Below, in pieces: positions 11,483-32,100 of a DNA stretch of 64,000 bases. This DNA comes from an uncultured delta proteobacterium (GTDB lineage: Bacteria; Myxococcota_A; Polyangia; Haliangiales; Haliangiaceae). The DNA is taken from the NCBI GenBank assembly GCA_963848295.1, contig CAWKDB010000002.1:992001-1056000 (forward strand), given 5' to 3'. The notes under the pieces were generated by a model that made no database searches, had not been told where the DNA came from, and was given only the letters and a program-made list of their open reading frames with translations. How positions within the stretch are numbered: position 1 is the stretch's first letter; each line of letters begins with the position of its first letter. The position numbers were made by a program, and so were the translations under genes.

Positions 11483-12835
11483 GTGACCGCAGGTCCCCGG
11501 GTGCTCGTAGTCGACGACGAGCGCAATATCCGCACGACGTTGACGATGTGCCTCGAAGGCATCGGCGCGAAAGTCATCGCGGTGGGCACGCCCGAGGCCG
11601 CCCTCGCCGCCGCCGAGCGCGAGCCATTCGAGCTCGCCTTCGTGGATCTCCGGCTCGGTGCCCAAGACGGCATGGCGCTGATCCCGAAGCTGCTCGCGTC
11701 TCGCCCGGAGCTCGCCATCGTCGTGATCACGGCCTACGCGACGATCGACACCGCGGTCGAGACGATCAAGCGCGGCGCGACCGAGTTCCTCGCGAAGCCG
11801 TTCACCCCGGCGCAGATTCGCCACGTCGTCGCGCAGGTCCTCGCGCGCCGGACCGCGGAGCTCAAGATCGCGGGACTCGAAGCGCAGATCGCCGAGGAGT
11901 TGCCCGGGATCGACGTCGCGACCGAGTCGCCGAAGATGCGCGCGACACTCGAGCTGGCGACCCGAGCGGCGGCCGCGGACGCGCCGATGTTGCTGCGCGG
12001 CGAGAGCGGCACCGGCAAGAGCGTGCTGGCGCGCTTGGTCCATGCTCGCAGCAAGCGCGCCGCGCAACCGTTCGTCACCGTGAGTTGTCCGACGCTGTCC
12101 GAGGACCTGCTCGCGAGCGAGCTGTTCGGCCACGCAGTCGGTGCGTTCACCGGGGCCGTTCGCGATCAACCGGGCCGGGTCGAGGCCGCCGACGGCGGCA
12201 CGCTGTTCCTCGACGAGATCGGCGACATCTCGCTTGCCTTGCAGGCGAAGCTGCTGCGGTTTCTCCAGGACAAGCACTTCGAGCGGGTCGGCGAGACCAA
12301 GACGCGGCACGTCGACGTTCGCGTCATCGCGGCGACCAATCGCGATCTCGACGCCGATGTCGCGGCCGGCCGATTCCGCGAAGACCTGCTGTTCCGCCTC
12401 AACGTCATCGAGATCGCGGTGCCCGCGCTGCGCGAGCGCTCCGAAGATATCGTCGAGATGGCGCGCCGATTTCTCGCGTTCTTCGCGAAGGCCGCGGCGC
12501 GGCCCGTGCCCGAGCTTTCGCCCGCGGCCGCCGCTGCGCTGCGCGCGTACGCGTGGCCCGGCAACGTGCGCGAGCTGCGGAACGTTCTCGAGCGCGCGGT
12601 GATCCTCTATCCTTCGGCCACGCTCGGTGTCGAGGCGCTGCCCGATCGGATCGAGGCCTCGGCGAGCACCCCTCCGAGGGTCGGTGCCGACTTCACGCTA
12701 GATCAGCTGGAGCGCGAGCACATCGAGCGCGTCGTCGCGCGCGCGTCGACGCTGGAGGATGCTGCTGCGATCCTCGGCATCGATGTCTCGACGCTCTATC
12801 GCAAGCGCAAGAAGTACGGTCACGACTCGGAGTGA
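11483..12835 (+). CDS. Sigma54-dependent response regulator (AlgB/NtrC-like)
   Basis: REC (VDDE, FVDLRL), [25 protein letters not shown] ([12 protein letters not shown]). Confidence 0.95.
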
Positions 12836-14667
12836 GCCGCGTCCGCGAGCGGAACGGTGAACCAGAACGTCGCACCCGCTCCCGGCTCGCCGGTGACGCC
12901 GATCGCACCGCCGTGCGCGCGCACGATCTCGCTCGCGATGTAGAGCCCGAGGCCCGCGCCGCCGGCGGGGGCGCCCGGCACGCGCACGTACTTGTCGAAG
13001 ATCGCGTCTCGGTACTCCGCCGGCACCCCGGGGCCATGGTCGACGACCTCGAAGCGCAGCGCGTGGTCCGCTACGCGGGCGCGGACCGCGACCTCGCCAC
13101 CAGCTGGCCCGTAGCGGACGGCGTTGCCGACGAGGTTCGCGAGCACGAGCAGCAGGCGATCGCGGTCGACTGCGATCGCCGGCAGGCCTGGCATCAGCTC
13201 GGAGCGCAGCTCGACCTGGCGCTGCGCTGCGGTCGAGCGCTGTGCATCGAGCGCCTCGCGCACGACCACCTCCGGGTCCTCGGGCGCGATGCGCAGCTCG
13301 ATCCGGTCAGCCGAGATCCGCGACAGATCGAGCAACTCGTCGACGATCGCCTGTAGTCGATCGCACTCCTCGCGTGCCGCGAACACCAGGTCGGCCTGTT
13401 TCTCGGTGAGCTCGCCGACGGCCTTCTCGGCGAGCAGGTGCACCGCCATCCGGAGCGATGTCAGCGGCGTGCGCAACTCGTGGGCGACGGTCGCGACCAG
13501 ATCGCTGCGCAGCTCCTCGAACCGGCGCAGGCGAGTCACGTCCTGGAGCACGATCGTCGCACCGATCACGTCGCCCTCCTCGGCGTAGAGCGGCGCCGCG
13601 CGTGGCAGCAACAACACGCGGGTCCCGTCGGCCCCGACGACCTCGACCGCCTCGTCCAGTCCCTTCGGGACGTACGCGCCGTGCCCGGCGGCGACGTATT
13701 GGCGCAGCCGCTCGACCGCGCTGCGCACCGCCGGTTCCAGCGACGCGAGCGCGCCGCGCCCTGCCTCGGCGCGCACCTTGAGGATGGTCTCCGCGATGTG
13801 GTTCGCGTGGCGCAGCTCGCCATCGAGCGCGACCACGAGCACCGGATCGGGGAGGCTGTCGATCGCGGCCTGCGCGGCGAGCTGGGCCTCGAGCAGCTCG
13901 CCGAGCGAGCTCTCGCGATACTTGTGGATGCGTTCGGCCATCGTGTTGAGCTCGTGGGCGAGCTCACCGATCTCGTCGCCGCGCTCGACCCGCGCGCGAA
14001 CCGCGACATCGCCCTCGCCGAGCCGGCGCGCGGTCTGGCCAAGCACGCTGAGCGGCCGGAGGACGCGCGTCGTGATCACCGACGACAGCAACACGCCGAG
14101 CGCGAGGCCGGCGATCGACACGGCGACGAGCAGCATGTTCGACTCGTCGGCGAGGTCGCGCGCGTGGTCGCTCTTGCGGATCATCGCGTCCTGATTCATC
14201 CCGAGGATTACGTCGGCCGCGTTCTTGACCGCGAGAAAATCCGGAAGCAGTTTCGTGAAGTAGCGGTCGTCAAGCCCGACCGCCTCGGGGCTCGCCCGGA
14301 CCGCTCCGACATCGCTGCGATAGGTCGTCCAGGCGAGGTGCAGCGCGGCGGTCGCACCGCGCTCGCCGGCCTCGGTGATGTTCGCTTCCTGGGCCGCGAG
14401 CTCGGCTTCGAACTTGGGCACGTTCGCATCGACCTGGTCGAGGCCACGGCCTGCTCGCCCGATGATCGCGAACACGACACCACTGTCGATCCGCTCCGCC
14501 GCCTCCTTCATGCGCTCCGCGGCAAGCACCGAGCGATAGTTGTCCTCGAGGATGTGCCGCGATCCACGACCGAGCGCCTGGATCACTACGCTGCCGATCA
14601 CGATCGTGATGCCGAGCGCGAGCACGAGCGGCAACTGCGCGAGCACGAGCTTCGTGCGGAGCCTCAT
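12820..14667 (-). CDS. Membrane sensor histidine kinase (helical periplasmic sensor, HAMP, PAS-like, HisKA, HATPase; KinB-like)
   Basis: Two TMs, HAMP (GDEIGELAHELNTM), VAHELRTPL, NLVGNA, DHGPG, GAGLGL. Confidence 0.92.
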   Translation of the reverse strand: MRLRTKLVLAQLPLVLALGITIVIGSVVIQALGRGSRHILEDNYRSVLAAERMKEAAERIDSGVVFAIIGRAGRGLDQVDANVPKFEAELAAQEANITEAGERGATAALHLAWTTYRSDVGAVRASPEAVGLDDRYFTKLLPDFLAVKNAADVILGMNQDAMIRKSDHARDLADESNMLLVAVSIAGLALGVLLSSVITTRVLRPLSVLGQTARRLGEGDVAVRARVERGDEIGELAHELNTMAERIHKYRESSLGELLEAQLAAQAAIDSLPDPVLVVALDGELRHANHIAETILKVRAEAGRGALASLEPAVRSAVERLRQYVAAGHGAYVPKGLDEAVEVVGADGTRVLLLPRAAPLYAEEGDVIGATIVLQDVTRLRRFEELRSDLVATVAHELRTPLTSLRMAVHLLAEKAVGELTEKQADLVFAAREECDRLQAIVDELLDLSRISADRIELRIAPEDPEVVVREALDAQRSTAAQRQVELRSELMPGLPAIAVDRDRLLLVLANLVGNAVRYGPAGGEVAVRARVADHALRFEVVDHGPGVPAEYRDAIFDKYVRVPGAPAGGAGLGLYIASEIVRAHGGAIGVTGEPGAGATFWFTVPLADAAHSES

Positions 14668-31408: not shown

Positions 31409-32100
31409 CCGCGCTCGGCGAGTGCGTGCTGGTCGTCGAGGACGAAGCGCCGATGCGCAGGTTCCTGTGTCAGGCGCTGGTCAGCCACGGCTATCGCGTC
31501 GCCGAGGCCGGCTCGCTCGCGCGCGCTCACGAGGTCGCGACCGAGACCCGGCCTGCGGCGATCCTGCTCGACCTCGGCCTGCCCGACGGCGACGGGCTCG
31601 ATCTGCTGCGCACCGTGCGCGAATGGTCGACCGCGCCGGTGATCGTGCTGTCGGCGCGCGATCGCGAAGGCGACAAGGTCACCGCGCTCGACGCCGGCGC
31701 CGACGACTATCTGACCAAGCCGTTCGGCACCAGCGAGCTCCTCGCGCGCATCCGCGTCGCGCTGCGTCGAGTCCGCGGCCAAAACAAGCCCGATGACCCC
31801 ACGATCGAGATCGGCCCGATCCGGATCGATCACGCGCGCTACGAAGTATTCGTCGACGCCAAGCCGATTCACCTCACGCCGATCGAGTTTCGCCTGCTCG
31901 CGCTGCTCGCCCGCCACGCCGGCAAGGTGCTGACCCATCGCCAGCTGTTGCAGGCGGTGTGGGGCCCGCGCAGCACGCAGCACACCCACTACCTCCGCGT
32001 GCACATGGCGGCGCTGCGCCGCAAGATCGAAGCGGATCCGGCCCGACCGCGCTGGCTGACGACCGAGGCCGGCGTCGGCTATCGCTTGCTCGACGAGTAG
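31405..32100 (+). CDS. kdpE: OmpR-family response regulator KdpE
   Basis: LLDLGLPDGDG, VREWS, DKVTALDAGADDYLTKPF, VLTHRQLLQAVWG, HYLRVHM; GTGA overlap with kinase. Confidence 0.93.
   Translation: MTALGECVLVVEDEAPMRRFLCQALVSHGYRVAEAGSLARAHEVATETRPAAILLDLGLPDGDGLDLLRTVREWSTAPVIVLSARDREGDKVTALDAGADDYLTKPFGTSELLARIRVALRRVRGQNKPDDPTIEIGPIRIDHARYEVFVDAKPIHLTPIEFRLLALLARHAGKVLTHRQLLQAVWGPRSTQHTHYLRVHMAALRRKIEADPARPRWLTTEAGVGYRLLDE

Follow-up and report, generated by a model that had tools for sequence, protein, structure and literature searches.

How does a bacterium arrange and switch its K+ uptake when the importer genes lie side by side? This question is raised by positions 11483..32100 of a 64,000-nt stretch of DNA (the window; positions 992,001 to 1,056,000 of contig CAWKDB010000002.1, here C2, of assembly GCA_963848295.1) from an uncultured delta proteobacterium, a Haliangiaceae by its GTDB lineage and in our analysis a soil myxobacterium of the Kofleriaceae (Myxococcota), whose 7.8-Mb genome is represented by 11 contigs and is 85% complete. 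Here lie the Kdp pump, a Kup symporter, two KimA-type permeases, two porins and two regulatory systems, an inventory that had been drawn up in a preliminary description from the DNA letters alone; Pfam/NCBIfam family searches and PDB searches located every part of it. The explanation that we consider probable, based on sequence comparison, is a native K+-uptake cluster that is run as two separately switched units together with a likely constitutive one, the two regulatory systems dividing the cluster between them.

In addition to the parts named in that description, the cluster holds promoter motifs, frameshifts and two small open reading frames (ORFs), one of 27 amino acids (aa) that precedes kdpF and one that encodes a conserved membrane protein of 69 aa. 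The leftward run consists, in order, of porin2, porin1, the 27-aa ORF, kdpF, kdpA, kdpB, kdpC, kimA1, the gene of a short KdpD, kdpD(N), and a PAS kinase gene. The rightward run consists of kup, kimA2, the 69-aa ORF, kdpD' and kdpE, and a sigma-54 activator gene is also on the (+) strand. KdpA, Kup, the KdpD domain and BBP2 (the porin family) have matches at the cluster and none elsewhere in the 85%-complete genome, and TrkH has no match anywhere in it (channels and antiporters were not searched for). All K+-import genes detectable in the genome sit in one chromosomal stretch, and the cluster is a real, native and unusually complete collection of K+-uptake parts. Most of these parts are already known, while their putative wiring into two regulons is well supported by the motifs and counts below.

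Promoters and regulators of the two proposed units

The first unit centres on an NtrC-type sigma-54 activator (11483..12835, + strand) with a receiver, an AAA+ domain carrying GAFTGA and a Fis helix-turn-helix, which is convergent with the pump operon. Its likely partner is a membrane histidine kinase of HAMP-PAS-HisKA-HATPase architecture (12820..14667, - strand); in relatives, too, the activator gene adjoins the same kinase gene. A sigma-54 -24/-12 promoter motif (GG-N10-GC; 23928..23943, - strand) lies 30 nt before porin1, and two palindromic enhancer-like sites of the TGCA-N3-TGCA type (24005-23995 and 24036-24026, - strand) are found upstream of it, a paired layout seen just once among the 1175 loose sigma-54 sites of the genome. 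The operon predicted from this promoter is porin1-ORF-kdpFABC-kimA1-kdpD(N)-kinase, where kimA1 is taken as part of the pump transcript because it lies 58 bp behind kdpC. Among the sigma-54-type kdp operons, a sigma-54 site precedes the first gene in 13/13 and an enhancer-like site is present in 12/13. The other, KdpDE-type, operons have a KdpE box in 8/12 and sigma-54 plus enhancer sites in 1/12, although four of these 12 labels were assigned by KdpA identity alone, which weakens the comparison. In the window, no KdpE box is found within 700 nt of the kdpFABC operon head (the background rate is 0.005 boxes per 700 nt), and neither motif lies directly upstream of kup, porin2 or kimA1. These results suggest that the sigma-54 switch likely drives the pump operon and porin1. 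Riboswitch control of the cluster was rejected, since an Rfam scan over 9000-35000 at E<=1 gave 0 matches. A scan for sigma-70 promoters and terminators was uninformative (1 promoter-like site vs. 1.5 expected).

The second unit centres on KdpE (31405..32100, + strand), which matches E. coli KdpE with an E of 1e-76 in the PDB search and retains the DNA-reading residues R193, R200 and T215; KdpE is also its best family match, at 285 bits, below the cut-off of 325. Its sensor, KdpD' (30020..31408, + strand), has a four-helix DUF4118, a shortened GAF region and a histidine kinase, but no KdpD or Usp domain. No full-length KdpD (KdpD, Usp, four-helix, GAF and kinase domains) was found, so the pair departs from the canonical KdpD/KdpE system. 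In E. coli, the KdpE box is TTTATA-N5-TTTACA (PMC3264566; here and below, published work is described from the accessible parts of the cited papers). A KdpE-type box, TTTACG-N5-TTTACG (27644..27661, + strand), lies upstream of kimA2 and is the sole occurrence of the strict box in the genome. A second, CTTGAT-N5-CTTGAT (29716..29732, + strand), lies upstream of the small ORF-kdpD'-kdpE genes and occupies the same place in relatives; the genome has 3 relaxed boxes in all, 2 of them in the cluster. We examined 79 KimA2 loci, 75 of which have usable upstream DNA. The relaxed box precedes kimA2 in 18/22 close loci, a count that is weakened because the relaxed box was derived from these same kimA2 loci, and the kimA2 upstream regions contain no repeat at spacers of 2-4 or 6-9.

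Further evidence on the second unit comes from genomes that have KdpD'/KdpE without a KdpD domain and without KdpA, namely 6 of 24 same-genus genomes (G003, G009, G012, G014, G016 and G022; 81-97% complete, three of them >90%). The pair has kup as its neighbour in five of these genomes and TrkH in G016, and KdpE boxes precede kup or kdpD' in 5/6 of the loci. KdpD' thus likely works alone, and KdpE likely drives kimA2 and the small ORF-kdpD'-kdpE operon rather than the pump, as far as the placement of its boxes can tell. Among relatives, KdpD' becomes shorter in steps, from about 650 aa with Usp still present through 460 aa to 355 aa, and GAF is missing from the shortest form. Graded KdpD truncations are seen beside KdpE at one locus, between glpD and a helicase gene (L128:5287-13445, L130, L135, L131-L134 and L136), and G014 carries two kdpD'-kdpE pairs back to back, adjoining kup.

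The short KdpD (14664..15842, - strand) consists of the KdpD and Usp domains and is a predicted serine kinase for S162 of KdpB. Walker A (GxxxxxGKT) and Walker B (DE) are present, KdpB keeps TGES, and a diadenylate cyclase is encoded in the genome; the score against NF038185 is 379 bits, below the cut-off of 550. Among 33 relatives, the KdpD domain is found in 15, KdpA in 15 and both together in 13, i.e. the KdpD domain tracks the pump (KdpA in 13/15 genomes with a KdpD domain). Short KdpD/Usp proteins are described as inhibitors of KdpB with a serine kinase activity that cyclic di-adenosine monophosphate (c-di-AMP) stimulates (PMC11018627), and by its predicted features KdpD(N) fits this known kinase that shuts the pump off.

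We propose that at low K+ the HAMP-PAS kinase would phosphorylate the NtrC-type activator, which would bind the two palindromes and open the sigma-54 promoter of porin1-ORF-kdpFABC-kimA1-kdpD(N)-kinase. In the second unit, the four-helix kinase KdpD' would phosphorylate KdpE, which would bind the direct-repeat boxes and turn on KimA2 and its own small ORF-kdpD'-kdpE operon. Kup and perhaps porin2, upstream of which no motif was found, would provide base-line uptake. By analogy with published homologues, the return of K+ would let c-di-AMP activate the short KdpD, leading to phosphorylation of the TGES serine of KdpB, and c-di-AMP would also inhibit KimA1, in which R337 is kept. KimA2 would lean more on transcriptional control because it lacks R337.

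Transporters, porins and a small membrane protein

The preliminary description had read the two permeases as KimA-type K+ importers and had named amino-acid transport as the alternative; residues and K+ locus context bear this reading out. KimA1 (15862..17733, - strand) and KimA2 (27693..29720, + strand) share 31% identity and match B. subtilis KimA with E values of 1e-111 and 6e-58, respectively, KimA being the sole PDB match for either. With residue roles taken from PMC6994465 and PMC10284832, the essential D36, Y43 and E233 are present in both. KimA1 also keeps D117, T230 and R337 (the last retained in 5/6 relatives), with N at T121 and F at Y377, and KimA2 also keeps D117, T121, T230 and Y377, with S at R337. 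In the KimA2 family, the K+/H+ residues are invariant (82-92 of the 82-92 sequences aligned per position). By every sequence test KimA2 is a KimA, and KimA1 is, by the same comparison, a KimA variant with an altered K+ site. The closest relatives of KimA2 (68-82% identity) are mostly from Kofleriaceae or 'Deltaproteobacteria' assemblies, and KdpA is present in 15/79 KimA2-family loci of several phyla, including Desulfobacterota and an Opitutaceae genome. Kup (25632..27596, + strand), the only one found in the genome, scores above the cut-off for TIGR00794 and has the K_trans and K_trans_C domains, the YGD motif and the E229 equivalent; the search pattern for its third acidic residue gave no match.

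Porin1 (22416..23913, - strand), the first gene behind the sigma-54 promoter, is frameshifted in the assembly, and porin2 (24093..25496, - strand) is intact; the two are 31% identical when a relative's intact porin1 is used. Their assignment to BBP2 is based on a PF07642 match and a beta-barrel fold in the model. The model of porin2 is a predicted OmpF-like beta-barrel with a predicted local distance difference test (pLDDT) score of 68.5, pore loops at <50 and a template modelling score of about 0.5 to OmpF; sequence search gave no significant solved relative. The function of BBP2 has been described as unknown (PMC4827864), and for one member induction under ammonium limitation is reported (PMC7438415). 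We surveyed 60 BBP2 regions, which hold 64 of the 75 BBP2 matches in a draw of 150 genomes (the 11 left out lie mostly at contig starts), and of the 11 regions most like porin1 or porin2, 7 are K+-linked. In G002 and G006, porin1 is separated from kdp but still has sigma-54 and enhancer sites. In these two genomes, porin1 and porin2 stand together (L141:1946-6486 and L142:7538-10683, respectively); those of G002 flank another copy of the sigma-54 activator, which is 66% identical. Porin1 may plausibly help monovalent cations to enter, a role that is weakly indicated for porin2. In several families of the phylum draw, BBP2 porins lie near ammonium transporters (L153, L155, L161, L185, L187, L190, L195, L199 and L201).

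The 69-aa two-helix membrane protein (29788..29997, + strand) belongs to an unnamed family tied to K+-uptake loci. ORFs downstream of KdpE boxes form this one family, which is single-copy in the genome, present in 39/61 genomes of the genus and comprises 188 clusters at 50% identity (E<=1e-10). Of its 45 matches, 30 came with loci, and 14 of these 30 were unused in model building; among these 14, 12 have K+ genes within 1.5 kb, and a box is present in 11. In G008 and G015, the small protein is found behind a sigma-54-like site instead of a KdpE box. The protein of the window has no Pfam or NCBIfam match, the family shows scattered weak Pfam hits in <=2/27 members, and the best score in an atlas search was 0.87, to unnamed clusters. 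Our guess, by analogy with KdpF, is that it may be an accessory of the sensor or transporter. A 387-aa database protein (P0135) joins the small protein to a KdpE-like regulator, either as a fusion or as a gene-calling artefact.

The pump itself is encoded by kdpF (29 aa; 22236..22325), kdpA (20511..22236), kdpB (18451..20511) and kdpC (17792..18448), all on the - strand and in order; kdpF and kdpC (TIGR00681) score above their family cut-offs. The four filter motifs of KdpA and the P-type motifs of KdpB (TGES, DKTGT, GDGTND and D583/K586) are present. Before kdpF lies a 27-aa hydrophobic ORF (22328..22411, - strand), which we take to be kdpZ-like and which has no Pfam/NCBIfam match; in relatives, a similar small ORF starts downstream of the sigma-54 site. 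In the assembly, kdpB is frameshifted and kdpA is in five pieces. About 13 frame switches, common to the comparisons with nearly all covering relatives (14 loci compared), fall within kdpB, kdpA and porin1 (19127-23309), and none is seen in the rest of 11.4-32.2 kb against the same loci; the relatives' genes are intact where those of the window are frameshifted. Short-read contigs of run X1, which have a depth of 4-6 and may stem from the source sample, show single-base differences at 8 positions corresponding to 7/13 break places, in kdpB and porin1 and none in kdpA among the rows listed, and one X1 contig of 498 nt has 0 substitutions and three gaps against the window. Since the X1 contigs differ, the pump motifs survive and the adjoining DEAD-box helicase (32108-34240) is likewise broken, the frameshifts are very probably consensus errors of the assembly. 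The presence of kdpB in relatives was scored from its intact C-terminal piece, another KdpB query piece being partly off-frame. Elsewhere in the window, at about 45000-46700, a gene that we take from its translated start to be groEL-like is present only as a 324-aa piece, which fits an unpolished assembly.

Genomic setting and alternative explanations

The preliminary description had called the locus an island and had allowed for an assembly chimera. A mobile genomic island was rejected: the guanine-plus-cytosine content is 68.0% vs. 68.2% for the genome, there is no tRNA or flanking repeat, no integrase is found among the ORFs scanned, and relatives hold subsets of the cluster at the same locus, between glpD and a helicase/VIT pair. 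Nor is the cluster a chimera. In G002, G006, L056 and L060, activator-kinase-kdpD(N)-kdp and kimA2-kdpD'-kdpE stand back to back; in L062, this arrangement is joined by kimA1 and the two porins; L050 has kup-kimA2 arranged as in the window; and G008 has everything except kimA1, on two contigs overlapping by 55 nt. In G011 (3 contigs), Kup and the porins are dispersed, far from kdp, and among the loci examined the window alone combines the four transporters with the two porins. Of the integrated, tiered system originally proposed, the KimA-type permeases and the division between two regulatory systems stand, and its tiers and response to K+ are presumed; the full set is not fixed, and Kup and porin2 have no K+-linked promoter motif. 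Several side observations were made at or around this locus. A 158-aa hydrophobic ORF without a Pfam or NCBIfam match lies between glpD and the activator (10982-11458, + strand), and G008 has a 594-aa ORF between kup and porin2 (L127:13654-15435). In L048:1-800, porin2 adjoins kimA2, kup being reduced to its two ends between them, indicating a deletion from the arrangement of the window. KdpA and TrkH never occur together in 24 same-genus genomes (TrkH in 0/12 with KdpA and 7/12 without), a count that includes the unpublished G010 and genomes that are incomplete and related.

Several observations weigh against two separately switched units that serve K+ uptake. A KdpE box on the operon's own strand is present in 2/13 sigma-54-type kdp operons, so that cross-wiring is possible, the relaxed box is found in just 5/53 distant KimA2 loci, and the related genomes in our counts are not independent of each other. 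The FTAxY motif, which we take to be the c-di-AMP motif of the S. aureus type, was not found in the Usp domain of the short KdpD. The X1 contigs speak for an error at 7/13 of the frameshift places and not at the other 6. In the BBP2 survey (n=60), 11 regions have K+ genes, 11 an ammonium transporter and 38 neither, and the two regions closest to porin2 are without a K+ gene. Finally, KimA1 has N at T121 and F at Y377 in the window and in 6/6 relatives, and Y377A in B. subtilis KimA raises KS about 100-fold (PMC6994465); the affinity or substrate of KimA1 may therefore differ.

Four other explanations were weighed. The locus could be a gene-accretion hotspot between glpD and the helicase, with Kup, porin2 and KimA1 as passengers that have no coordinated role. 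Gene content varies widely among relatives, L048 retains only the ends of kup, Kup is found in 24/24 genus genomes but mostly away from this locus, and kup and porin2 lack motifs in the window; however, each promoter type is conserved and stays with its own regulator, and porin1 keeps its sites away from kdp. A hotspot suits Kup and porin2 well and the two units poorly, and as an account of the cluster it is unlikely, though not negligible. The preliminary description had spoken of a split KdpD. In one form of this idea, soluble KdpD(N) docks with the PAS kinase as well as with KdpD' and is the input that the two share, making a single circuit: the genes of KdpD(N) and the PAS kinase overlap in all sigma-54-type loci having both, the D. 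vulgaris kinase is described as split into these two ORFs (PMC3333781), and KdpD/Usp and transmembrane/GAF/DHpCA on separate chains are a common pair (PMC11018627). The six pump-less genomes that have KdpD'/KdpE without the KdpD domain, three of them >90% complete, show that KdpD(N) and KdpD' are not just two halves of one sensor and make the shared circuit doubtful, and the published activity of short KdpD is directed at KdpB, which still allows a scaffold role toward the PAS kinase; we regard the shared circuit as quite unlikely.

Transport of amino acids or ammonium instead of K+, by either permease or by the two of them, is improbable. Pfam assigns both to AA_permease_2, KimA1 deviates at T121 and Y377, BBP2 porins often lie beside Amt and a comparable permease in Leptospirillum is annotated as GadC, but KimA is the only PDB match of either permease, D36, Y43 and E233 are invariant, and the K+ gene context recurs across KimA2 loci. 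Even less is to be said for the pump and porin1 as decaying pseudogenes in a cell living on three symporters, an idea prompted by about 13 frameshifts restricted to 19127-23309. Every catalytic motif survives, the KdpA scores show no stop within any piece, the X1 contigs lack the breaks at 7/13 places, one of them with 3 gaps and no substitution, and the neighbouring helicase is frameshifted as well; this idea is very hard to credit. Two switched units with a base-line part hence remain the explanation that we favour. An extension of it, which we offer tentatively as possible rather than probable, is that KdpE of the Kofleriaceae has exchanged the Kdp pump for symporters of the KUP family (KimA2 or Kup) as its target, via KdpD sensors that were shortened in a series from the N-terminus (to about 650, 460 and 355 aa), that the unnamed 60-90-aa two-helix family is a dedicated and hitherto unrecognised component of K+-starvation regulons in bacteria, acting on sensor or transporter, and that porin1 is an outer-membrane entry for K+ co-induced with the pump.

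Significance and comparison with known systems

The cluster offers natural test cases for questions of bacterial K+ homeostasis, the main points of interest being the putative rewiring of KdpE, the shortened sensors and the small-protein family, which is a new candidate regulator. Stripped-down KdpD' kinases, with or without GAF, could show which part of KdpD senses K+, and two KimA subfamilies that differ at the K+ site and the c-di-AMP arginine provide a ready comparison of affinity and regulation. For annotation, the cluster supports reading such 'amino-acid permeases' as K+ importers, and it places a member of BBP2, a family without an assigned substrate, directly behind a pump promoter. 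In a literature search that was thin on subscription papers and supplements, we found nothing on this myxobacterial cluster, on the small two-helix family or on KdpE boxes before kimA or kup. The accessible part of a Caulobacter preprint (10.1101/2023.07.05.547876) shows no KdpE control of kup, and its chromatin immunoprecipitation sequencing targets may bear on whether such control is already in print.

Partly similar arrangements are already in print for Leptospirillum, Geobacter and Desulfovibrio. The first unit resembles DVU3334-DVU3339 of Desulfovibrio vulgaris, where a sigma-54 response regulator controls kdpFABC (PMC3333781, PMC4641369) and a KdpD+Usp ORF and a separate histidine kinase (DVU3335) share the operon in the same layout (PMC3333781). 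The marks of this type, i.e. a GAFTGA activator and kinase beside kdp and a -24/-12 promoter at the operon head, are found here, but the activator gene is convergent with the operon, which begins with a porin gene and includes a KimA gene, and a second pair, KdpD'/KdpE, adjoins. In Leptospirillum, kdpABC, BBP2, a 'gadC2a' permease, a kinase and a regulator form a cluster suggested to be K+-related (PMC7231039), which likewise combines a pump, a BBP2 porin, an APC-fold permease and a K+-sensing pair; its permease is annotated GadC, and the accessible text gives it one porin and mentions no Kup or sigma-54 system. In Geobacter sulfurreducens, a kup-annotated gene lies directly 3' of kdp, in kdpABCDE-kup, but riboswitch control is reported there, and the accessible text describes no porin or sigma-54 unit (PMC2700814).

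The sensors match published classes of short KdpD and TM/GAF/DHpCA kinase in having separate genes, Walker motifs and the TGES of KdpB (PMC11018627). That survey names the Myxococcota as mostly short-form KdpD with diadenylate cyclase, but covers species with a Kdp pump only and assumes that the kinase chain serves the pump, whereas here KdpE boxes precede kimA2 and the kinase-regulator pair also occurs without a pump. Both permeases resemble B. subtilis KimA (PDB 6S3K; PMC6994465, PMC10284832) in fold, as judged by sequence, and in D36, Y43, D117, T230 and E233. They differ in that no c-di-AMP riboswitch was matched (0 Rfam matches), KimA1 has N121 and F377, and KimA2 carries S in place of R337 and is preceded by a KdpE-type box. 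Finally, the KdpE of the cluster shares its DNA-reading residues and the 6-5-6 direct repeat with E. coli KdpD/KdpE (PMC3264566), but its sensor is without the N-terminal half, and its boxes precede a symporter gene and the regulator operon, not kdpFABC.

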